The notes under the pieces were generated by a model. That model searched no databases. It was not told the origin of the DNA and saw only the letters and a list, made by a program, of their open reading frames with translations. Of a stretch of DNA of 64,000 nt, positions 5,098 to 18,667 are shown one piece after another. The stretch covers positions 7,015 to 71,014 of the forward strand of contig JAHJCT010000024.1 in assembly GCA_018812715.1 (NCBI GenBank), in the 5' to 3' direction. This DNA comes from Candidatus Micrarchaeota archaeon. Its GTDB lineage: Archaea > Micrarchaeota > Micrarchaeia > Anstonellales > Bilamarchaeaceae. Within the stretch, counting starts at the first letter, position 1. Each line of letters starts with the position of its first letter. Made by a program: the position numbers and the translations under genes.

Positions 5098-5814
5098 TCA
5101 GGAGACGATTATACCTCCTTTTTCCCTTATCGCTTGATAAATTTTTATAAGGTCTCCAGCCGTAACAGATTTACAGTTAGTTGCTATCCTTCCATCTTTT
5201 GAGATGCTAATTGAGATATGTTCTCCATCATCTGTTTTCATTTCAATTGCAAGTGCAGTGGTATTTTTTGGATCGTAGGTAGGCGCTTGATGGACATTCA
5301 CACCAAATTCAGCTCGAACTTTAACTTCCCCTTCATTTACATCAGCCCACGATCCCCAGACATTGATGCAATCAATAGCTTGATAAATTTTTTCTAAATC
5401 GAAAGAGATTCTATTCATCTTGACTAGTTTTGTTTCTTCTAGCCTCTTGTTGAATTGTTTAGATATTTCTTTTGTTGCAGCGCAAATCAAAACTTGATCT
5501 TTATCATTTTTTATCGCCCAAAAGCGATAGACCTTTTGGTAGCCCCCCTCATGATATTTTGCAAATTCTTCTCCTTCGGGGCAAAATCTGATAGTTTCCT
5601 TGATAGTATCACTATAGTGAATGATATCAAAGGAGGCACCATCCTGAGTTTTTTTTACAAGCTTAATTTTCGTTACTGGAGTCCCAAGTTTATCTCCCAA
5701 TCCATATTCAGATGCTAGATCTTGTTGAAGAGGAAGAACCACTTCCCCACGTTTTTCTATAATTGATTCTAAATCAAATTTTTCTATAGCGAAAATTGAA
5801 ATTGCAATTCCCAT
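5098..5814 (-). CDS. Hypothetical protein of 238 aa. Second gene of a two-gene cassette.
   Basis: ORF on the minus strand, 4 nt downstream of the 5819-6490 ORF on the same strand. No motif recognised. Confidence 0.5.
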   Translation of the reverse strand: MGIAISIFAIEKFDLESIIEKRGEVVLPLQQDLASEYGLGDKLGTPVTKIKLVKKTQDGASFDIIHYSDTIKETIRFCPEGEEFAKYHEGGYQKVYRFWAIKNDKDQVLICAATKEISKQFNKRLEETKLVKMNRISFDLEKIYQAIDCINVWGSWADVNEGEVKVRAEFGVNVHQAPTYDPKNTTALAIEMKTDDGEHISISISKDGRIATNCKSVTAGDLIKIYQAIREKGGIIVS

Positions 5815-5818
5815 AAGC

Positions 5819-6490
5819 TCACCAAATTTTTAATAACACCCCTAGCTGCTCTCTCATTTCGGAAAAATTAATTGCTGATAGGGCAGTTTCAGTTTTAGAA
5901 AATCGTATTGAAGATGCATTATCCTTAGATTGAACGATTTGGAGTCTGTCTAAGGTATATCCGGAAAATTTCGGATGATATAGTTCGCACCAATACTTCG
6001 GCAAAAAGAGATTGATGTTAATGGAAGTAAGAGACACATTTGCAATTGACATAAGTCTTTCAGACTTAGAAGCTAGTTTGTTGAAGTCCATTATAACTGA
6101 GGATATACCAGTATTAATTTCGGTTGTTTCAAAATGGACATGGTCATCCCCAAGATAATGGAAGAGATAATTTATGGACCCGTCTTGAATTTCAATCTTA
6201 TTTTTTGCTATAATATTTTTTCTAAACTTTGTTCCGAATTCTTTCGAGAAAAATGTGACCATCTTGTTCTGAAAAGAGGGAAAATCCATTGATAGATTAT
6301 AGTCAATGATTACTCGCATTCTTATAGGGGCGTTTGATAATTTTGCAACTGCTTTCCTAAATTTATTGACGATTTTTAAATTGTGTTCAACTATTATAGG
6401 GATAACTATGGAAGCTGTCCATATGAGAACATCAATTCCATTTTTCAGAAGCACATCTTCTGAAGGTAATTCCATAAAATATTGATACAC
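5819..6490 (-). CDS. Hypothetical protein of 223 aa. First gene of the two-gene cassette.
   Basis: ORF. It forms a tight operon with 5098-5814. Confidence 0.5.
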   Translation of the reverse strand: MYQYFMELPSEDVLLKNGIDVLIWTASIVIPIIVEHNLKIVNKFRKAVAKLSNAPIRMRVIIDYNLSMDFPSFQNKMVTFFSKEFGTKFRKNIIAKNKIEIQDGSINYLFHYLGDDHVHFETTEINTGISSVIMDFNKLASKSERLMSIANVSLTSININLFLPKYWCELYHPKFSGYTLDRLQIVQSKDNASSIRFSKTETALSAINFSEMREQLGVLLKIW

Positions 6491-6601
6491 AGAATATTTG
6501 TTATTTCTATCATTTATTGTAACTAGGATACAACATGTTGCACAAATGAATAAATCGTGTTGAAACCATCAACTTATCATGTTAGGATTTGAGGTGATAA
6601 G

Positions 6602-6907
6602 TTGGTATTCAAACGTCTGATTCTGCTTCTCCTGGCGGGAAGCCTGGCCTTTGCTGAGTTCAGCATCCCTGCTGATCAGCCCATATGCAACCTATACGGG
6701 ATGCTCAAGACATTTGGGACTGTCGTAGGCGTCCTTGTAGCTGCCTATGCTGGCTTCATGATAGCGAGCGTTACGGACCTGAAGGAGCGCAATGATGCCA
6801 AGGCCCTTCTGGGAGGTGTGGCAGTCGGTCTGATAGTGATCTGGATAGCTCCTTTGGTTATAACAAACCTCGTAGGAGCAGATAGCGTCTGCGGGTGGAC
6901 TTCCTGA
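6602..6907 (+). CDS. Small secreted or membrane protein with VirB2/TrbC-pilin-like topology (signal peptide plus two TM helices).
   Basis: Signal-peptide-like MVFKRLILLLLAGSLAFA, then two TM segments separated by a charged loop (DLKERNDAKA), with Cys near both ends. GC is much higher than in the flanking DNA. Confidence 0.45.
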   Translation: MVFKRLILLLLAGSLAFAEFSIPADQPICNLYGMLKTFGTVVGVLVAAYAGFMIASVTDLKERNDAKALLGGVAVGLIVIWIAPLVITNLVGADSVCGWTS

Positions 6908-7128
6908 TTGACCTTATTGGCATTTCTTCTGCCATAAAGTCGATAGCTATCTTTTTCTCAGTCATTATCCTAAGCTATGCAGGGATTGTCCTCATAACTA
7001 GCAAAGACCCGGTCTCAAGAAACGAATGGAAAGAAATTGCCAAGGGGGTCTTAATCGGCATTTCCGTCCTATTTCTTGGCCCAGTCATCTCTTCAGCACT
7101 TACAGGAGGTGGATATTGTGGTCCTTAG
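6895..7128 (+). CDS. Small two-TM hairpin membrane protein (VirB2/VirB3-like?). It starts at a GTG that overlaps the previous gene's stop.
   Basis: 77-aa ORF with two hydrophobic helices. It overlaps the upstream ORF by 13 nt, consistent with operon arrangement. Confidence 0.4.
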   Translation: MDFLIDLIGISSAIKSIAIFFSVIILSYAGIVLITSKDPVSRNEWKEIAKGVLIGISVLFLGPVISSALTGGGYCGP

Positions 7129-7942
7129 GCAGTTGGTCCTCTTTTTTGCCCTTGTTTCCATATCCGCAGCCTATCAATACCATGACTATGTGAAGGAAGG
7201 CAACTATCACGGTCCGGCATTGGTAAACGATTCCCTTCTAGACGACTGCCGTTTCCTTGAAGTGCCAGAAGTCATATGCAATACTACTGAAAGCGGAAAC
7301 CTGACGAAAGAGCAGGGGCGGCAGTTGATTCTCGATACATTGAATCCATCGATATCCGGCCTAGAATATAGGTTTTTCGAGCAACTGGATACGAAAGTCA
7401 AGAGCTCCCTGATGTTCAGAGTCATTGAGTTTGAGCCATATTCCAAAGACGAGCTGAAATCCCTTCTTCAGGTGGTCGCAAAAAGGACCCTGCTGGAAGA
7501 TTCCTGCGATAGCGAGGTATTGGGCAAAGTTGCCGAGCTCGGGGCATCCAATGAAGGAAACGCTCGATTCGCCATTTGGCTGCTTTTTTCCGCTGCCAAA
7601 GATGCCGAGGAGAGGAATTCCGAAAAGATAGAACTAGATGATGTTGTTAAGGCATACGAAAGGCTTGTCCCAATAAGAGCGCAAAACCAGAATGAAACCG
7701 GACTTTGCGAGGAGGAGCTGCTAATCCTGGATCTTCTGAAAGAAGGGGAGAAAGAATCATCCGAGATTTACGAGATAGTTCAGAAGAGGATAAATCGGTC
7801 AAAACGCCAGATTCGTAATTATCTCAGTTCTTTGGCCCAGAAGGGCCATATTAAGGGCCAGGAATTCGAGGGTACAAATTCAATGCTTAAACCAAAAGTG
7901 TATCGAGTTTGCCAGAGGAGATTGAATGAGGTTTACGATTAA
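7076..7942 (+). pseudogene. Orc1/Cdc6 C-terminal fragment (sensor, lid and winged-helix region). The Walker A and Walker B motifs are missing. A GTG at 7118 preceded by GGAGGTGG is a plausible start.
   Basis: EQLDTKVKSSLMFRVIEFEPYSKDELKSLL aligns with KLDTRIRSSLRFSEMEFKHYSEEELISIL of the intact Orc1 at 47043-48092. KRQIRNYLSSLAQKGHIKGQEFEG..LKPKVYRV aligns with KRQIRNYLDLLEKKGIIESEKFEADGILRPKVFRL of the same protein. No GxxGxGKT motif is present. Confidence 0.6.
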
Positions 7943-8170
7943 GAGAAATGTACGGACTTTCATTCGAAATTATGGCATGAGGTTGGAGGCCGGACTTATC
8001 GGAGAGCTTGAGAGTATGATTGAAAAAAAGCTATCTCGGGCCATTGAAAGGGCAAAGAGAAATGGCCGGACGACCATAAAAAATCATGATATATAAAAAT
8101 CTCATTATAATAAACCACTTAAATTTATTCTGGTTTTATTTAAAGGACGCTGATCTCAATCGTGATGGTA

Positions 8171-9700
8171 ATGGCTAAAGACAACGGAGCTAATTTAGGG
8201 TTTGAACAGAAACTCTGGCAGGCAGCAGACAAGATGAGAAACAATATGGACGCTGCCGAATACAAGCATGTAGTCCTTGGCTTGATTTTCCTCAAATATA
8301 TTTCTGATGCTTTTGAAGAGAAGCACAAGAAGCTTCTGGCAGAGAAAGCACAAGGAGCAGATCCCGAAGACCCTGATGAGTACAGGGCTGAAAATATCTT
8401 CTGGGTTCCCAAAGAAGCAAGATGGCATTATCTACAAGATAACGCAAAACAACCAACAGTTGGCAAGCTAATTGATGATGCCATGGATGCAATAGAGCGG
8501 GATAATCCCTCTCTAAAGGTTGTTTTGCCCAAGAATTACGCCCGCCCCGCCCTTGATAAACAACGATTAGGAGAACTAATCGATTTGATAGGAACAATCG
8601 GCTTGGGCGATTCGGAAAACCGCTCAAAGGATATTCTGGGCCGGGTATACGAGTATTTCCTCGGCCAGTTCGCCGATGCTGAAGGAAAGAAAGGAGGCCA
8701 ATTCTATACTCCGAGAAGCATTGTCAAGCTTCTTGTAGAAATGCTTGAACCATATAAAGGAAGGATCTATGACCCCTGCTGCGGCTCAGGCGGCATGTTT
8801 GTTCAGAGTGAAAAATTCATAGAAGCCCATGGTGGAAAACTTGGGGACATTTCCATATATGGGCAAGAGTCCAACCAGACCACCTGGAGATTATGCAAAA
8901 TGAATCTGGCGATCAGAGGCATTGACGCAAATATCCAATGGGGAGATAGTTTTCACAATGACCTTCAGAAGGATCTGAAGGCGGATTTCATCATAGCAAA
9001 TCCTCCGTTCAATGTCAGCGACTGGAAAGGAGAGCTTTTGAGGGATGATGTAAGGTGGAAATACGGGGTTCCACCGTCTGGAAACGCCAACTTCGCATGG
9101 GTCCAGCATTTCGTTCATCATCTATCACCAACAGGAATAGCCGGATTCGTATTGGCTAACGGTTCCATGTCCTCTAATACCTCTGGGGAAGGGGAAATTC
9201 GGAAGAGCCTGATTGAAGCAGATGTAGTGGACTGCATGGTCGCTTTGCCAGGTCAGCTTTTCTATAACACGATGATTCCGGCCTGCCTTTGGTTTACGGC
9301 AAGGGACAAGAAAAACCATAAGTTCAGGGACCGGAGGGGCGAAGTGCTATTCATAGATGCACGAAACATGGGCGTCATGGTCGACCGAAGACATAAGGAG
9401 CTCACAGATGAAGACGTCCAGAAGATCGCTTCAACTTATCATGCCTGGAGAGGCGAAGGGGGCAAGTATGAGGATGTCAAAGGCTTCTGCAAGTCGGCCA
9501 AGCTTGATGAAATAAGGAAGCATGGCTATATCTTGACTCCTGGACGCTATGTCGGTGCTGAGGAAGCAGAAGAGGATACGGAACCTTTCGATGAGAAAAT
9601 GAAGCGGCTGACGGGCGAGCTTTCGGAGCAGTTCAGTAAGTCTAAGGAACTTGAAGATGAAATAAGAAAGAATTTAGACGGGTTAGGGTGGAGAGTGTAA
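8171..9700 (+). CDS. hsdM: Type I restriction-modification N6-adenine DNA methyltransferase subunit (HsdM).
   Basis: NPPF motif in [16 protein letters not shown]-terminal HsdM_N-like segment [34 protein letters not shown]. The ORF is drawn from 8162 but the likely start is MAKDNG at 8171. Confidence 0.9.
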
Positions 9701-9703
9701 AGG

Positions 9704-10618
9704 ATGGAATTAGTGCCTAGGGGGTTATTTAATGAGAGAAAAGGTACTGCACAATCAGGAAAGGATTATTTTACCCGAGATATCAGAACTAAAATCTTAA
9801 TGTTGTTTGATGATTTTGATCTAAACCACTTAGACACTTCTTCTGTTGTAGTAGTAGGCGGAAGTTATCGGAATTCCTGTTTAAGGCTAATGAAATCTAA
9901 GTTAAAATATTTGGTAGACCTGGGACATATTGATAAGTTTGAGGAATTTTTCTTAAGTTGTACTCTTAATGAGCTTCTCTCATGTGTCGAGTTGTATACT
10001 AAATGTATGGAGGAAATAATATCGAGGTATGAACAACATGAACGAACCAAACTATATAGTCGAGGTTATGATACTAGTCAACTCCTAGTAACTTTTGTTA
10101 AATCATTCAATAATTTATTGGCTTACCATAAAATCCCATATCACTTTGTTTACAATGATGTATTAGATAAACTGTTTATTGAAAAACAGTTTAATGAAGT
10201 GGAAGAAGAGGTCAAAGAGAAAATTTACGAAATAATCAAAAATGAGCCCAAGATTAATGAATATTTTACGCAATCTTTAGGGGATTATGCCAAAAGGGAA
10301 TATAAAGTTTCTATAGAAAATGCGTACTTAACTCTAGAAAAATATCTTAAAGTTAAAACCAAAAATCACAACTTGGATGCTGTAAGAAATTTTGTAGAAT
10401 TTCAAAAGAAATACTCATTCAATGAAAAAGGAATATTCTCTGTTAGGCCCGATATAATCAAAAACAAGATTTCGCTAATTTACTCTATTAGAAGCGAACT
10501 AAAATCCCATTCCGATAGGGAAACTTTTGATACTAATAAATTTTTGGAAGAGACAGCTAAGTTCCAATTAAACGAAGTTATGAATTGTATACTTATATTA
10601 GAGGACTTGAGTAAATGA
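9704..10618 (+). CDS. Hypothetical 304-aa protein embedded between hsdM and hsdS. Markedly AT-rich.
   Basis: Its ATG lies 3 nt after the hsdM stop. Its stop overlaps the hsdS ATG as ATGA. GC is about 30-33% against about 47% for hsdM and hsdR. No Walker A or other motif seen. Confidence 0.6.
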   Translation: MELVPRGLFNERKGTAQSGKDYFTRDIRTKILMLFDDFDLNHLDTSSVVVVGGSYRNSCLRLMKSKLKYLVDLGHIDKFEEFFLSCTLNELLSCVELYTKCMEEIISRYEQHERTKLYSRGYDTSQLLVTFVKSFNNLLAYHKIPYHFVYNDVLDKLFIEKQFNEVEEEVKEKIYEIIKNEPKINEYFTQSLGDYAKREYKVSIENAYLTLEKYLKVKTKNHNLDAVRNFVEFQKKYSFNEKGIFSVRPDIIKNKISLIYSIRSELKSHSDRETFDTNKFLEETAKFQLNEVMNCILILEDLSK

Positions 10619-11940
10619 AGAACACACATCTAAAAGAAACCGAAATCGGAGAAATCCCTGAAGAGTGGCAATTGAAAAGGGTAGATGAGATTGCAGTCAT
10701 AAACGAAGCTGCTGTAGGTAAAAAATATCAATGTGAAGAAATTGAGTATATAGATATAGATTCTGTAGAAGAAGGCCAAATAAAAACTGTTAAAAAAATG
10801 AAATTGGCAGAAGCACCGAGCAGAGCAAAACGAATTGTTAAGAAAAACGACATTTTGATCTCCACAGTAAGGCCCAATCTGAAGCATTATGCCTTTATCT
10901 CAGCAGCAAAACCAAATACGGTAGCTTCCACTGGATTTGCAGTAATATCCGCAAAAGGCATAGACCCGAGGTTTCTCTATTATTGTTTAACTACGCAGAA
11001 ATATACGAATTACCTTTCTGCGATTGCAGATGCGCATACCTCAACATACCCTTCATTTAACCCAGATATTATAGAGAATTCAAATATTCCTTATCCGCCC
11101 ATTCCAGAACAACATATCATCGCCAAAATCCTTTCCGATTTGGACGCCAAAATCGAACTAAACCGCCAAATGAACCAAACCTTGGAACAAATCGGTGAGG
11201 CCCTTTTCAAGCGCTGGTTCGTTGATTTCGAATTCCCTAATGAGGAAGGCAAGCCGTACAAATCAAGCGGCGGGGAGATGGTGGATTCGGAGCTGGGGGA
11301 GATACCAAAGGGGTGGAATGCGAGTAAATTGGGGGAACACGTATCTATGGTTAGGGGTTGTTCTTATTCTAGTGCAGGATTAAAGGATTCGGAAAATGCT
11401 TTAGTTACGTTGAAATCAATTGAACGTGGAGGCGGATTCAAGACTGAGGGATTCAAGCCCTATATTGGTGAGTTTAAGGATAAGCATATTGTAAAAAACG
11501 GTGAAATAATTGTAGCACACACTGATTTAACACAAAATGCCGAAGTTCTTGGTAAGCCTGCGATAGTTCGGGAAGTACCTTATTTCAATAAATTAATCGC
11601 ATCCATGGATTTAGGGATTATTAGGCCAACTGACGATAGGGCATCTAATCCATTTTTGTACTATCTTTTGAAGTCTGATCAATTCCAAAATCATGCCTAT
11701 GGGTATGCGAGTGGAACAACAGTATTGCATCTAAGCAGTAAAGCCATTCCTGATTTTCAATTTATTTTGGCGAGAAAAGAAGTAATCACCCGTTTTACTC
11801 AAATCGTAGAAAAGTTAACTATGAAAATTCAGTACAACTTTTCAGAAGCAGAAAATCTTGAAAAGATTCGAGATACCCTCCTCCCAAAGCTCATGTCCGG
11901 ACAGATAAGGGTAAAAATCCCCAAAGAGAGTGCTAACTGA
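10615..11940 (+). CDS. hsdS: Type I R-M specificity subunit (HsdS) with two target-recognition domains.
   Basis: Conserved central region [23 protein letters not shown] and C-terminal region [12 protein letters not shown]. Two variable TRD-like halves. Its end overlaps the hsdR start (ATG at 11940). Confidence 0.85.
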
Positions 11941-14900
11941 TGGATCACGCTATAACCGAATCAGAAACCGAAGAACTTGCCCTTCAGACACTCGCAAAGC
12001 TGGGCTACAAGGTGATTTTTGGTCCGAATATAGCTCCAGACGGCCCAAACCCAGAAAGGGGTTCATATTCCGATGTTGTGCTTGTCGAAAGGCTCAAGGC
12101 AGCAGTTCAGAAGATAAACCCGACCATTCCAGCCGAAGTCCGGGAAGAGGCGATAAAGAAGGTCCTCAGGACAGAAAGCCCGAAGCTCATAGTCAATAAC
12201 CACAATTTCCACAAAATGCTTGTTGAGGGCGTAAACGTAGAATACCGTCAAAAAGGCGCCATCAGAGGAGACAAGGTCTGGCTTTTTGATTACAAGAGGC
12301 CGGAAAACAACGAATTTCTTGCAGTCAACCAGTTTACAGTCATAGAAAACAACAACAACCGCAGGCCAGACATCGTTTTATTCGTGAACGGGCTTCCTTT
12401 GGTAGTAATCGAACTGAAAAATCCTGCTGACGAAAACGCAACCATAAGAACTGCCTTTAACCAGTTTCAGACATACAAGGTCCAGATCCCATCATTGTTC
12501 AGTTATAACGCATTTCTGATTATCAGCGATGGCTTTGACGCCCGGGCAGGAACGATTACCTCCGAATGGGAACGCTTCATGCCCTGGAAAACGATTGAGG
12601 GCAAAGCCAAGGCCCCTATCACCTCTCCATTGATGGAGGTTCTTATCCTTGGAATGTTCAACAAACCATTTTTCCTAGATCTTATCCGCCATTTCATCGT
12701 ATTCGAAAAGGAACACCACAAATATTCTAAGAAACTCGCTGCATACCATCAATACCATGCAGTAAATCGGGCCATTGGATCAACCCGAGGCGCTCTCAAA
12801 GGGGATAAACGGTGCGGCATTGTATGGCATACCCAAGGCTCAGGAAAGAGCCTTACTATGGCCTTCTACACTGGGAAGCTCATCCTTGCCCTGGATAACC
12901 CCACAATAGTCGTCCTTACTGACCGTAATGATCTTGACGACCAGCTTTTCCAGACTTACAGCAGATGCCAGGAGTTGCTCAGGCAGAAGCCAGTCCAGGC
13001 CGAATCAAGAAAAAGCCTTAAAACCCTGCTTAAAGTTGCATCTGGCGGCGTTGTCTTTACTACAATCCAGAAATTCTTCCCTGAAGGCAAAGGAGACAAA
13101 TTCCCGCTTCTATCTGAACGGCGCAATATCGTTGTAATCGCAGACGAGGCCCATAGGAGCCAGTATGACTTTATCGATGGTTTTGCCAAGCATATGAGGG
13201 ACGCTCTTCCGAATGCTTCTTTCATAGGATTTACCGGAACCCCGATTGAAAAGGCGGATAGAAGCACTCCGGCGGTTTTTGGGAACTGTATTGACATTTA
13301 CGATATAGAACAGGCAGTTACAGATGGCAACACAGTCAGGATTTTCTACGAAAGCAGGCTCGCAAAGCTTGAACTCAAGGAAACTGAAAGGCCAAAAATA
13401 GATCCTGAGTTTGAGGAAATTACCGAAGGGGAAGAGGTCTCCCATAAGGAACGGTTGAAAAGCAAATGGGCCAGGCTTGAAGCCGTCGTTGGAAGTGAAA
13501 AGAGAATAAAACGCATAGCAAAGGATATTGTTACTCATTTTGAGAAACGGCAGGAAATCCTCGAAGGAAAAGGAATCATAGTGGCTATGAGCCGTAGAAT
13601 TTGTATTGACCTTTATAAGGAAATTAGAAAGCTGAGGCCGGAATGGTGCCACAAAGACGATGAAAATGGCAGTCTAAAGGTAATCATGACTGGCTCGGCA
13701 ACCGATCCGGTGAGTTGGCAAGAGCACATTAGGAATACTACCAGGAGACGTGCTCTGGGCGACCGTTTCAAGAATCCTGAAGATCCAATAAAGCTTGTCA
13801 TTGTAAGGGACATGTGGCTTACTGGCTTTGATGTGCCAAGCCTTCATACGATGTACCTTGACAAACCTATGCGGGGACATGGGCTGATGCAGGCAATAGC
13901 CAGAGTAAACCGTGTATTCAGGGACAAGCCCGGTGGGCTGATTGTTGATTACATAGGAGTTGCTGACGACCTTCGAAAGGCGTTGTCTGAATATACTGAA
14001 AGCGGAGGAAAAGGAAAACCTGTCTTTGATCAGGAAGAAGCAGTTGCGGCGATGCTGGAGAAATACGAAATAGTAACTTCAATGCTCCATGGCTTCGAAT
14101 ACCAGCGCTTTTTCAAGGCAGGAACAAGCCAAAAGATGTCAATTATCCTTGAAGCAGAAGAATTTGTATCAATGCAACCTGAAGGCAAAGAGCGCTTCAT
14201 AAAAAACGTTTCCCTTCTTTCCAAGGCCTTTGCACTGGCCGCTCCTCATGAAGAAGCACTCAAGTTAAGGGATGACCTTGCATTTTTCCAAGCCGTTAAA
14301 GCAAGGCTTTCTAAATTCAGGGAAATGGCTGGTAAGCCAGAGGAAGAACTTGACACCGCAATACGGCAGATTGTATCAAAAGCCATAGTGTCCGATAAAG
14401 TCGTTGATATCTTCCAGGCGGCAGGGCTAAGAAAACCTGATATTTCAATACTTTCAGATGAGTTTTTAGCCGAAGTCAAAGGGATGAGACATAAAAACCT
14501 AGCCTTTGAACTGCTGAAAAAGTTGCTAAATGACGAACTTAACTCCAGAAGCAGGAAAAATCTTATCCAATCCCGTTCATTTGCAGCTTTGCTGGAAAAG
14601 ACCATCAAGAAATATCAAACCAGGGCTATCGATTCAGCAGAAATCATTGAGGAGTTAATAGACCTTGCCAAGGATATACGGGAAGCCGATAAACGGGGGG
14701 AAGAATTAGGGCTTTCTTCTGATGAAATTGCGTTTTATGATGCGCTTGAAGTCAATGATAGCGCAGTAAAGGTTCTTGGCGATGAAACGCTTAGAACGAT
14801 TGCCCGCGAACTTGTGAAAATGGTCAAAGCTAACGCAAGCATAGACTGGACTTTGAGGGAGAATGTCAAGGCCGCTATGCGGGTTGCCGTAAAACGCATA

Positions 14901-15002
14901 CTTAGGAAATATGGTTATCCCCCTGATAAGCAGGAGTCAGCGACTCAGACAGTCATTAAACAGGCTGAACTTCTTGCGGACAGCTGGACCGTTGGAGCAT
15001 AA
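11940..15002 (+). CDS. hsdR: Type I restriction enzyme R subunit (HsdR). SF2 helicase plus nuclease.
   Basis: Walker [17 protein letters not shown] box [10 protein letters not shown] and helicase C-terminal motifs. 1020 aa. Confidence 0.9.
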
Positions 15003-15018
15003 ATTGCCGTATTTGATG

Positions 15019-15053
15019 CCGTAATTTACTGGCGATTTTACCTAAAATTACGG
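15019..15053. terminator. Candidate bidirectional terminator hairpin between the convergent hsdR and VirB4-fragment genes.
   Basis: Inverted repeat CCGTAATTT(N17)AAATTACGG followed by an A/T-rich run. Confidence 0.3.
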
Positions 15054-15132
15054 TCAAAAATTTGGCCGTAAATTTCTCAAGAATTGAGGAATTATGCCCC
15101 AATTCGCTTATTTTTGCATTATTAGCGATTCA

Positions 15133-15957
15133 TTATTTTGTGCTGAGCTGGGAGATGATGCCTGGGAGCTCGTTTCTGGTAATGGTTTTTCCGAATTTTT
15201 CGTAGTTTCGTTTTTCCCTCCAGCCAGTTACTACTATGTAGAAATCTGAGTACTGGGCCCTTACTGCATCAAACTTGGCTATATGGGCCTCATTGGAATA
15301 GCCCCTGAAATTTTCCCCAGTTTCCACTTCAAAAGCGATTTTTTCCTTTTTGATTGAAACAACGATATCTCCCGGCTGGGTGGTCTTCATATCAACTGTT
15401 TTGAAACGCTCCTTCAGCATATAGTAAATCATCCAACAAAAGAAGGCATGTCTCGGGCTCTCCCTATTCCTCCTTTTCACCAAATGCCAGGCAGAACCTC
15501 CAAACTGTCCTAAACGGTCCTTATGGAGAGCATAGCCATTCTCTACCAAGTACGTTATCTCCTCTTCAGTCAGGCCGTCTTTCTGGTAAATCCCCTTCTT
15601 CAAGTCAATCTTTGGCACAGACTTTTTTTCAACCGGATTCTGAGGCCTTGGCGTCTCCTTTGGATGGGTCGTTATTATCTCATGAAGTTTCTCGGAGGAC
15701 TTGACAAAGAACTTGTGGGAATCGTGCTCAGTAATGACCAAGCCAAAGCCACTCGGAGCTGTAAGAAGATAGTTTTTGGCCGGATCATTGAGCTTGAGGG
15801 TATTAGAAATCAGGTCTATATTCGTGGGATTCTGCCTCATCAATATCTTAACCGAGGCAGTATTGAGGATGGAACGTCCCGCCTTGCTTCTTAGCAAATC
15901 CTCAATCTCCTGGGTGATAAAGCCTATCGAGGCATTGAACTTCCTTGAGGTCTTCAC
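15133..15957 (-). pseudogene. 5'-truncated VirB4/TrbE-like conjugative ATPase C-terminal fragment fused to a C-terminal domain of unknown, possibly nuclease-like, function.
   Basis: ASIGFITQEIEDLLRSKAGRSILNTASVKILMRQN...NTLKLND...GFGLVITEHDSHKFF matches the VirB4/TrbE C-terminal pattern (ATQS..D......TKI.L.N...LGLN....GL......F). The frame stays open upstream to about 16093 with no ATG, and it overlaps the integrase 3' end. The track start is a GTG. Confidence 0.5.
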
Positions 15958-16028
15958 AAAATCAAGGATATATCCGGCGGCCTCTCCGTTTACAAGGGCA
16001 TGGTCCCGGCTAACGTCAAAGGAGGGGG

Positions 16029-17069
16029 TCAGGAGATTTCTGAAATCGTCATCCGATATGTCCTCTTCCTCGGGCCATAGACGTCAAGGATGGCATTATC
16101 GACGTCCCTTCCGCTGAGGTGGACATAGACGCTGGCCATATCCGAGCCCTGAACCCAGCCGAAATACTCCTTCATCTGGGCCTCGGTAAGCTTGTTGGCC
16201 AGGGCGGTGGCCCTGGAATGGCGGAAAAGGTGTGGTGTGATCTTCTTCTTGATGCCCGCTTTTACGGCTACGTCGCAGATAATCCGTTTGGTAACCGAAT
16301 AATGGAGCGGAAGCGTGTCCATCGCCTTACGGTCCAGGTATCTTGACCAGAGATAGGCCTCAGGGTCATCCTTGTAGGGGTGGAAATCCATCCAGAGGGC
16401 AAGGGCCGGGGCAGAAGCGACTAGCCTTATCCTCCGGTCCCCAGTCTTGCCAGTAACCCTTATTATGGCCCCAAAATCGTCGAATTCGACGTTTTTTAGC
16501 TGGATTGTGAGCAATTCCATTATCCTGCATCCGCTCTCATAGAGGACCTGAATCATAGCCTTATCCCGGGGCTTGGTGGCAGCATCGGCCATCCGCTTTA
16601 TCTCATCCTCGGAGATAAGCTCTTCGGGAAGCTTGACCAGGCGCTCCTTGACATGGCACTTAATCCAGCGGACTTCATCTGGATAATCCTCGTCGTTGCC
16701 CTTGAACCATTTGAAGAACCTCTTGATGAGAATCTTCCGGTCAGCCTTGGTCCAGGCCTTCAAATCGCTAGTCTCGACCTTTCCCACGAGCTCCAGAAGG
16801 TCCTTCTTCGTAACCTTGGCAAATGGTTTTCCGAAATTACGGGAGAACCAGCTCAGATTACCGAGGTATTTGAGCCTCCTCAGCCTTCCCAGCCCGATAG
16901 AGGCAATATAGGAGTCGAACTCCAGAATCAGCTTCTTATTCGCTGGAATGACGCTTTTATCATTCCGCAATGACTCCAGCCGGGTCTCTAGCCTTCGGGC
17001 CGTATTCTTCAAATCACACTTCACATCCATCACCTTCGTTTCCAGTCTTTTTACCGTTTTATGCAACAT
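16029..17069 (-). CDS. int: Tyrosine recombinase/integrase, XerC/XerA-like. Intact.
   Basis: C-terminal catalytic region HLFRHSRATALANKL...YVHLSGRDV, consistent with an R..H..R..Y catalytic tetrad. 346 aa. It sits next to a tRNA gene. Confidence 0.8.
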   Translation of the reverse strand: MLHKTVKRLETKVMDVKCDLKNTARRLETRLESLRNDKSVIPANKKLILEFDSYIASIGLGRLRRLKYLGNLSWFSRNFGKPFAKVTKKDLLELVGKVETSDLKAWTKADRKILIKRFFKWFKGNDEDYPDEVRWIKCHVKERLVKLPEELISEDEIKRMADAATKPRDKAMIQVLYESGCRIMELLTIQLKNVEFDDFGAIIRVTGKTGDRRIRLVASAPALALWMDFHPYKDDPEAYLWSRYLDRKAMDTLPLHYSVTKRIICDVAVKAGIKKKITPHLFRHSRATALANKLTEAQMKEYFGWVQGSDMASVYVHLSGRDVDNAILDVYGPRKRTYRMTISEIS

Positions 17070-17533
17070 ATTGCACGAAAGGCGAGGATGCGATCCGCCA
17101 AAACGGCGTATCGGCCCAGGAACCCGCAGCCTGTTATAAAAAGCGGCGGCGTGTTGCCTAGGGAGTTGCGTTAAAAGAATAAAGCCGGGTAAGGGAGTTG
17201 TTCAAACTTCTGATCGATGTGCCTTTTGATCAAACTTTTGGCATTTGTTTACACAGGTCAAAAGTTTGTTGAACCCCTCTATGCCGCTTTCTACCCCCAG
17301 TTTTTGGGGCGCCTTTCCCGATTGAAACAAAGTTTCAATGGGCACCTTGAACGCAAAGCGTTCAATTGTGTTCCTAAAAAGGTGCACTGCAGGCGGCCGC
17401 ATAGCCGATCTGCCAACCCGGCTTGTGTGTAATTAAAGAAAGTTGCATTTTTAAATGATATCAGGCAAAGTCTCATAACATTTCTGAACTTGTTTCAGGA
17501 AAATAAACCAACCTTAGAATGACATAAGGAAAT

Positions 17534-17647
17534 GGGCCCGTAGCTCAGCTTGGTAGAGCGTCGGACTTTTAATCCGCAGGTCGAGGGTTCGAATCCAAGC
17601 TTTTGAAAAAGCTTGATCAAAACTTGGCGTTTATCCCTCCGGGCCCG
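17534..17647 (+). tRNA. tRNA-Lys(TTT) interrupted by a 40-nt intron in the T-arm, at about 17595-17634. The exons fold into a perfect cloverleaf.
   Basis: Exon 1 reads GGGCCCG-TA-GCTC-AGCTTGGTA-GAGC-G-TCGGA-CTTTTAA-TCCGC-AGGTC-GAGGG-TTCGAAT. After the 40-nt insert, exon 2 reads CCCTC-CGGGCCC-G. The acceptor stem and T-stem are perfectly complementary only across the insert. Confidence 0.8.
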
Positions 17648-17803
17648 ATCTTCTTTTCTTTTGAAACTTGTTTCAATCTAAGACCCCACCTTATTATGAA
17701 ATATAAACTTTTGTCAGCATATTTGTTGGTAATGAAGTTTTTGGCATTTGGTAGTGGAAACGGAGCCGGCCAAAGAAAAAAGCCATTCAAAAATAAGACA
17801 ATT

Positions 17804-18667
17804 ATGCGACCAGATGGTGTTGAGGTTTCTTATAGATACAGAAGACCAGAAACAAATAATCCGAATATTGCTTTTCAAGGAGGATGGACGACCCACCCAG
17901 CCGTTTATCTTGCACAAATTAGAGATTTAGCATCACAATATGGAGTCCTTACTATGGAAAATAGAGGGCATTGGCATAGTCGTCTTGGAAACAGCACTCC
18001 AAACACTTATATCGATGATCTTGTTGAGGATTTCAAAGCGATTCTAGACGCAGAAAAAATTGAAAAAATAGTAATAACCGGACATTCTATGTGGGGTGCA
18101 GCAGCAATGCACTTTTATCATAAATATCCAGAAAGAGTTTTAGGATTGGTGCTAGTTGCTCCAGCATATACAGACCCACGAAAACTTGGATTTATGAAAA
18201 ACTATGATTTTTTACATCCGATCAGTGAGAAACTTGCTTCTCTTGCAGGCCATGCAACTGGATTTGATTTTGTTAAGAGACATGTGCTTTCTAGAACTCC
18301 ATTGGCTTGGCATGCATTGAGATTTGTTCTTCTAGTTACATTCCTAAAGGAAGCTAAAAATCAAGAAGACGTAGAAAAAATGATCAAAAACGTTTACAGA
18401 GCAGATATAAAGGCAATGAGTATGTCAATGCAAGCACTTTTTCTAATGAATGGTAATCTTCGTGAAAAAGCTAGAGAAATAGAAGTTCCAGTATTAATCA
18501 TAGGGGGAAAACAAGATTCGTTAATACATCCAGAAAGCTTAGAGGAACTAGCGGATTATGTTCCGAACGCCAAACTTGAGATATGGAATGAAGTTGCGCA
18601 TTTCCCTATGCTAACTTATCCTGCGAGATTTACACATCGCGTAGTGCAATTTCTTGAGGACATTTAG
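17804..18667 (+). CDS. Alpha/beta-hydrolase fold protein. The track start at 17603 overlaps the tRNA. Likely starts are 17804 or 17696.
   Basis: Nucleophile-elbow-like ITGHSMWGAAA, then HG-type context LVLVAPAY. Typical abhydrolase length. Confidence 0.6.
   Translation: MRPDGVEVSYRYRRPETNNPNIAFQGGWTTHPAVYLAQIRDLASQYGVLTMENRGHWHSRLGNSTPNTYIDDLVEDFKAILDAEKIEKIVITGHSMWGAAAMHFYHKYPERVLGLVLVAPAYTDPRKLGFMKNYDFLHPISEKLASLAGHATGFDFVKRHVLSRTPLAWHALRFVLLVTFLKEAKNQEDVEKMIKNVYRADIKAMSMSMQALFLMNGNLREKAREIEVPVLIIGGKQDSLIHPESLEELADYVPNAKLEIWNEVAHFPMLTYPARFTHRVVQFLEDI

Follow-up and report, generated by a model that had tools for sequence, protein, structure and literature searches.

Why does an AT-rich gene of no annotated function sit between hsdM and hsdS of an archaeal Type I restriction–modification (R-M) operon, and what might its product do? 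We addressed this question for an open reading frame (ORF) of 304 residues in a Candidatus Micrarchaeota genome, within a window that comprises the whole 64,000-nucleotide stretch analysed (assembly GCA_018812715.1, contig JAHJCT010000024.1). A sequence-only reading of this window had recognised no catalytic motif in the product and had suggested an uncharacterised R-M-coupled defence or accessory factor, possibly akin to PrrC/RloC- or DUF4145-type proteins. We found that the product is very probably a highly divergent AbiJ-type protein, comprising an AbiJ_NTD4-like N-terminal domain (NTD) followed by a HEPN domain. Taken as a whole, a role for this protein as an AbiJ-type RNase that provides second-line defence beside the Type I R-M system is likely.

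Family assignment and active-site residues

The identical protein is recorded as a ‘hypothetical protein’ in a Candidatus Micrarchaeota metagenome-assembled genome (MAG), and a further match lies in a Woesearchaeota MAG. A word-indexed search of 5.8 billion proteins returned 24 clusters, all unannotated and, bar one 193-residue fragment (P0024), 286–312 residues long. The alignment of 23 sequences from this close clade (A1, used also as a profile) contains 41 invariant columns, among them R263-S264-x4-H269-S270, E283-T-x2-F-Q-x-N-E near the C-terminus and R6-x-L-F-x-E-R at the N-terminus. Together with full-length homologues at 38–75% identity, these columns establish the ORF as a real gene and not a chance frame, and purifying selection is indicated by the fact that over 20 homologues keep such identity with no frameshift. 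The family is rare, since HMMER, run exhaustively with the profile over 1.84 billion representatives, gave only 35 proteins at E ≤ 1e-3. The close clade is nearly confined to DPANN archaea, and searches of plasmid, phage and viral collections turned up no relatives. Fragment P0024 is a metagenomic sequence whose match covers 29% of the query (70% identity) and for which a Pfam PF01177 hit is also precomputed; it probably reflects a gene that was truncated, or called as a chimera, at the end of a contig.

The link to AbiJ is made through more distant relatives. The distant profile matches are proteins of ~300 residues that are collinear with the window protein and recognisably AbiJ-type, matching Pfam AbiJ_NTD4 at the N-terminus (best 5e-18, above the gathering score) and DUF7014 (1.5e-19), Abi_C (2e-9) and HEPN (4e-5) at the C-terminus. 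Searched against 1.84e9 proteins, the A1 profile reached P0046–P0056 at E 5e-8 to 9e-4, and these pass DUF7014 and Abi_C. Aligning the close clade with seven Pfam-positive proteins, whose N-domains pass the AbiJ_NTD4 cutoff, using hhalign gave a probability of 98.7% (E 1.8e-16) over 275 collinear columns, which span A1 positions 9–297 and include the N-domain, with R263 and H269 falling on the RN..HG motif. PADLOC AbiJ matches positions 37–279 of the 281 in P0033, an intermediate member that the A1 profile finds at E 6.6e-32, and the distant relatives are labelled by PADLOC as AbiJ and as the candidate system PDC-S32. AbiJ_NTD4 matches are present in 13 of the 40 extended-family members. Within the close clade, two members match this model at E 3e-4, under the gathering score, while the window protein gives no direct match, and one member matches the HEPN model at E 0.19. 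Profile comparison was thus positive for both HEPN and AbiJ, giving a ‘hypothetical protein’ that is invisible to Pfam, NCBIfam, PADLOC and PHROGs a specific, testable annotation as an AbiJ-type NTD4–HEPN putative RNase. The description ‘uncharacterised’ holds in that no database model detects the protein, but not for the family, AbiJ, which is known.

The predicted structure of the window protein (predicted local distance difference test, pLDDT, 88.4) is consistent with this assignment. The N-domain carries conserved R6-x-L-F-x-E11-R12, E96 and N136 and a β-hairpin at residues 146–161, and in the model its size and α+β content agree with the ~160-residue description of AbiJ-NTD4. In the C-terminal domain, the location of the Rx5H motif in the model agrees with the published HEPN definition. 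That definition also includes a conserved acidic residue in helix 2, usually inside an E-x3-[KR] motif, a position held here by E212, with K216 at least 90% conserved in the 23-sequence clade. Across the 40-sequence extended alignment (mean column identity 30%) only E212 and H269 are invariant, and R263, E96, N136 and F188 are each at least 90% conserved. Judged from sequence, the HEPN domain keeps an intact active-site constellation (R263-S-x4-H269 with E212-x3-K216) and is a putative metal-independent RNase of the type that leaves 2',3'-cyclic phosphate ends; the earlier statement that no catalytic motif could be recognised was wrong.

Placement in Type I operons

In the window, the ORF is co-transcribed with a complete Type I R-M system in the order hsdM-ORF-hsdS-hsdR (Table 1) and is probably translationally coupled within the operon. 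Direct reading of the sequence confirmed the layout first described, in which the ORF begins 3 nucleotides past the hsdM stop codon and ends in an ATGA overlap onto hsdS, and located a purine-rich GGTGGAG 12–18 nucleotides upstream of the ORF ATG. The hsdR copy is apparently intact.

Ten distinct contexts of close-clade members were inspected, nine of them informative; at L011, the contig stops just past the ORF homologue. Homologues proved to be overwhelmingly in hsd operons, with eight of the nine informative contexts inside Type I operons that show two HsdR C-terminal types and several gene orders. The order hsdM-ORF-hsdS-hsdR-YgjP is found where the ORF is 74% identical to that of the window (L006–9). 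At lower identities, the orders are hsdR-x-ORF6N-hsdM-ORF-226aa-hsdS-491aa in Woesearchaeota (L004/5/14, 56%), hsdM-ORF-223aa-hsdS (L013, 47%), hsdM-Schlafen/AlbA_2-ORF up to the contig end (L015, 47%; a 4-kb contig binned as Caldisericum), hsdR-...-ORF-hsdS-x-x-hsdM (L010, 40%), hsdR-DUF3800-x-x-ORF-166aa-hsdS-x-x-hsdM, with an hsdR of the EcoEI_R_C type (L001–3, 39%), and hsdR-BroN-ORF-211aa-OLD nuclease-168aa-hsdS-298aa-hsdM, again in Woesearchaeota (L017, 38%). The homologue is on the hsd strand at every operon locus, and 7 of the 8 operon-embedded homologues have an ATGA overlap onto the downstream gene. The genes that lie between ORF and hsdS at four loci (L004 7056–7736, L013 1577–2248, L001 8879–9379 and L017 8914–9549, encoding 226, 223, 166 and 211 residues) gave no Pfam match and no mutual BLAST similarity; since they are mutually unrelated, there is no conserved partner gene.

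Some further features of these loci were observed. The Woesearchaeota operon at L017 (6947–13833) holds much extra cargo between hsdR and hsdM, including the OLD-family nuclease, made up of AAA_15 and TOPRIM. Several small hsd-operon ORFs (91 residues at L001, 95 and 97 at L010, and 491 at L004) look hydrophobic or membrane-like when their first 60 residues are read by eye. The bacterial-binned (Caldisericum) L015 contig, JAIMJY010000093.1, encodes an HsdM 73% identical to that of the Micrarchaeota window, reflecting either inter-domain cassette transfer or mis-binning of a short contig.

For comparison, 66 metagenomic loci of the broader AbiJ_NTD4–HEPN family were scanned with hidden Markov models (HMMs) of HsdM, HsdS and HsdR, and 31 were informative. 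Nearby hsd genes were detected at 3 of these 31 loci, versus 8 of 9 clade contexts (Fisher p = 1.8e-5), although it counts against the contrast that the HMMs were built from the clade's own operons, could miss divergent R-M systems and scored Type I only. Two of these three loci hold distant, full-length AbiJ_NTD4–HEPN genes, L034 1591–2454 (287 residues) and L037 3520–4410 (296 residues), which occupy the hsdM-X-hsdS slot on unrelated metagenomic contigs; both carry the motif RNKMGGHGQG, and they appear to have colonised the slot independently. Embedding in hsd operons is thus a recurrent theme, strongly enriched in the close clade.

Separate histories for the ORF and the hsd backbone in this window are supported by their guanine-plus-cytosine content at third codon positions (GC3), which is 28.9% for the ORF and 49.7% and 47.0% for hsdM and hsdR, and by discordant identities. 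At L006, the ORF is 74% identical, yet identity to the window proteins falls to 33% for HsdM, 24% for HsdS and 31% for HsdR; at L013 and L015, HsdM is 73–74% identical and the ORF only 47%. The contrast in total GC content noted in the sequence-only reading (~30–33% versus ~47%) was reproduced, at 30.8% for the ORF and 46.8% and 45.7% for hsdM and hsdR, with hsdS at 39.6% and the window mean at 37.5%. The separate acquisition drawn from that contrast stands on GC3 and discordant identity, and raw GC alone is insufficient. The compositional outlier relative to the host genome is the hsdM/hsdR backbone with its surrounding island, not the ORF. The hsdS gene is a mosaic in which the parts encoding the target-recognition domains (TRDs) have ~37% GC and the central conserved region, at 47%, resembles hsdM and hsdR, a pattern consistent with exchange of TRDs from an AT-rich donor. 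Like these TRDs, the ORF is an AT-rich insert in a GC-rich hsd backbone. In other genomes, the GC3 of the ORF is about equal to that of its neighbours, so its lower total GC there mostly reflects an amino-acid composition rich in K, N, I, F and E.

The hsd operon lies in a GC-rich island (window 6600–17200, 43–52% GC versus a 32–38% host background) that also contains pilin genes of a type IV secretion system (T4SS), fragments of Orc1/Cdc6 and TraG and a tyrosine integrase, and that has the appearance of an integrative or conjugative element in decay within the Micrarchaeota genome. Window positions 1–24000 yielded no tRNA gene, and 5800–18000 no convincing att repeats. Just outside the island (5098–6490), two adjacent minus-strand ORFs of 238 and 223 residues had no Pfam match at E ≤ 0.01.

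Table 1. Features of the ORF, the hsd operon and the surrounding GC-rich island, in window coordinates (wHTH, winged helix-turn-helix)
Feature	Position	Strand	Basis or remarks
ORF, 304 residues, divergent AbiJ-type (AbiJ_NTD4-like N-domain and HEPN C-domain; very probable)	9704–10618	+	ATG start
N-terminal α+β domain, residues ~1–170, AbiJ_NTD4-like	9704–10213	+	Collinear hhalign, predicted secondary structure
C-terminal HEPN domain, residues ~178–304	10235–10615	+	H1 182–196, H2 200–219, insert 226–247, H3 250–267, H4 278–303
E212-K-Y-L-K216, E-x3-[KR] motif in HEPN helix 2 (residues 200–219)	10337–10351	+	Auxiliary active-site acid
R263-S264-E-L-K-S-H269, Rx5H HEPN motif	10490–10510	+	Invariant R, S and H in 23-sequence clade
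hsdM, Type I methyltransferase subunit	8162–9700	+	Pfam HsdM_N and N6_Mtase 8.5e-115; PADLOC MTase_I
hsdM stop (TAA 9698–9700), 3-nucleotide spacer, ORF ATG at 9704	9698–9706	+	Direct sequence reading
ATGA overlap: ORF TGA 10616–10618, hsdS ATG 10615–10617	10615–10618	+	
hsdS, specificity subunit, two TRDs	10615–11940	+	Pfam Methylase_S, 2 stretches; PADLOC Specificity_I
hsdR, restriction/translocase subunit	11940–15002	+	Pfam HSDR_N, SWI2_SNF2, T1R_D3-like, T1RH-like_C; PADLOC REase_I 1171 bits
T4SS pilin ORF, TrbC/VirB2-like	6602–6907		
T4SS pilin ORF, T4SS_pilin	6895–7128		
Orc1/Cdc6 C-terminal fragment	7076–7942		Cdc6_lid and wHTH
TraG P-loop fragment	15133–15957	−	
Tyrosine integrase	16029–17069	−	51.6% GC

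Possible function and competing explanations

The AbiJ-type HEPN assignment and the eight of nine hsd contexts support the earlier proposal of an R-M-coupled defence or accessory module, and no match to a housekeeping family was found. By analogy with HEPN RNases and abortive infection (Abi) systems, we infer an RNase activity, its trigger and substrate, and a physical or functional coupling to R-M, along the following lines. In an uninfected cell, the HEPN RNase would be held silent by its own N-domain (~170 residues), presumed to be a sensor or autoinhibitory module, and/or through contact between it and the R-M complex. Once restriction is evaded or disabled by a virus or mobile element, the N-domain would sense either some component of the invader or the disturbed state of the R-M complex, and the HEPN domains would then pair, forming the active site. 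Cleavage of cellular or viral RNA (tRNA, rRNA or mRNA) would lead to growth arrest and abort the infection. The protein would in this way back up restriction much as PrrC backs up EcoprrI, though with no ATPase domain. We give even chances to the ORF working as an R-M-coupled abortive RNase in just this manner.

Several observations weigh against the assignment or the function. The window protein has no match in Pfam, NCBIfam, PADLOC or PHROGs models or among PDB sequences, and for Abi_C, DUF7014, HEPN and PADLOC AbiJ it has none at E ≤ 1; because no model matches directly, AbiJ membership rests on transitive profile evidence and the predicted structure. The residue after the motif arginine, S264, is polar, versus the usual N, D or H. 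Foldseek against the PDB returned noise only, except for the sacsin HEPN domain. The N-domain has no fold relative or ligand on record. L016 (Nanoarchaeota, ORF 40% identical) is a stand-alone gene with FEN1 and PolB either side and no ATGA overlap, so hsd linkage is not obligatory. Lactococcal AbiJ itself has no established mechanism, the only mechanistic clues being that it has a HEPN domain and that phages escape it through mutations in their single-stranded-DNA-annealing proteins.

That lactococcal AbiJ acts as a single gene also suits a different explanation, in which an autonomous AbiJ-like Abi or toxin gene hitch-hikes in hsd operons, as defence hotspots and expression slots, uncoupled to the Type I enzyme. 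The stand-alone L016 fits this, as do the 28 of 31 broader relatives without nearby hsd genes and the unrelated cargo that archaeal hsd operons also hold (OLD-family nuclease, Bro-N, DUF3800, Schlafen/AlbA_2 and ORF6N). Mere hitch-hiking is harder to reconcile with eight of nine clade contexts sharing the hsd strand, mostly 4-nucleotide overlaps and a place adjoining hsdS across two HsdR types, with the clade's enrichment over the wider family, and with the independent use of the hsdM-X-hsdS slot by L034 and L037; we consider it possible but unlikely. The tight coupling between hsdM and hsdS, which would yield stoichiometric co-production, could also serve a non-catalytic HEPN-fold subunit acting on the assembly, specificity or restriction alleviation of the R-M enzyme, since some HEPN families are non-catalytic binding domains and a serine after the arginine is atypical. 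The (near-)invariance of R263, H269 and E212 amid such low mean column identity is instead what an active site would be expected to show, the motif is placed exactly as in active HEPN RNases, and HEPN families that lose catalysis typically lose Rx4-6H, which makes a non-catalytic subunit highly improbable.

The position directly upstream of hsdS and an AT-richness like that of HsdS TRDs would also suit a degenerate extra TRD, or a spurious or decaying ORF, an explanation to which the full-length conservation without frameshifts described above leaves next to no probability. An extra HsdS TRD (PF01420) was rejected as neither Methylase_S nor Specificity_I matched at E ≤ 1, and a TRD fold as the model consists of a mainly helical α+β N-domain, with one β-hairpin, and an all-helical HEPN domain.

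We therefore retain the AbiJ-type RNase as the preferred reading. A narrower version of it, which we hold to be speculative and rather doubtful, is that the DPANN clade may be an R-M-dedicated AbiJ offshoot whose NTD4-type domain guards HsdM/HsdS by docking on them and frees the HEPN RNase when a viral anti-restriction factor disables the enzyme. If true, archaea would have an equivalent of PrrC-EcoprrI that works without an ATPase, and there would be a first mechanistic clue to what is sensed by AbiJ N-terminal domains. Being near-exclusive to the hsdS neighbourhood in otherwise unrelated Type I operons, the clade is a system in which to ask whether AbiJ effectors are wired to R-M, and its alignments could seed an HMM for defence-system finders.

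Comparison with known defence systems

The kinship with PrrC, RloC or DUF4145 suggested at the outset was right as to kind, HEPN and Abi, but the family indicated is AbiJ and none of these three. DUF4145 (PF13643), Abi2/AbiD/AbiF, AbiU2 and Ymh resemble the window protein in having a HEPN fold with an Rx4-6H motif and in often lying inside R-M operons. None of them matches at E ≤ 1 (for PF13643, neither the window protein nor any clade member), and the best profile kinship is with AbiJ-type Abi_C/DUF7014 accompanied by NTD4. The models of the PADLOC candidate single-gene system PDC-S32, for which we found no descriptive literature, cover the greater part of intermediate and distant members (to 1.9e-12). 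The wider family is therefore already on record as a potential defence system, but these models match neither the window protein nor its clade.

With PrrC and RloC, the anticodon nucleases of Type I (Ic) hsd operons, the window protein has in common the placement of a HEPN RNase gene within an hsdM/S/R operon and, as a concept, a latent RNase that would back up restriction when a virus neutralises it. It differs in having an AbiJ_NTD4-like N-domain instead of an N-terminal ABC/Rad50-like ATPase, with no sequence similarity, and no P-loop or ABC/AAA Pfam match was found in any of the 40 family members. The tRNA-Lys specificity and the Stp- or dTTP-type control are features of PrrC and RloC.

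The closest resemblance is to AbiJ proteins with AbiJ-NTD4 (Pfam PF18863 with PF14355 Abi_C or PF22809 DUF7014). The length class of ~280–315 residues is shared, Lactococcus AbiJ having 281 (the family is treated in Anantharaman et al. 2013, PMC3710099), as are the domain order (an α+β N-domain of ~160–170 residues, then HEPN), the position of the catalytic motif and an occasional placement in R-M operons, including the hsdM-X-hsdS slot (L034, L037). The window clade is set apart by being too divergent for any Pfam or PADLOC model to detect, and by its motif, RS-x4-HS, in place of the RN-x(4-5)-HG of Pfam-positive AbiJ-type relatives. The AbiJ family was given as bacterial in 2013 (PMC3710099), whereas the window clade is nearly DPANN-archaeal only, which extends the reach of the family into archaea whose antiviral repertoires are poorly known. 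The same paper found AbiJ proteins without NTDs to be those more frequent in R-M operons, yet the window clade bears an NTD and is almost always hsd-embedded (8/9 versus 3/31). A specialist would not be surprised by the general arrangement, because HEPN Abi genes within R-M operons are already well established; what is new is the extreme divergence, the DPANN-archaeal distribution and the near-obligate hsd embedding of an NTD-bearing AbiJ.
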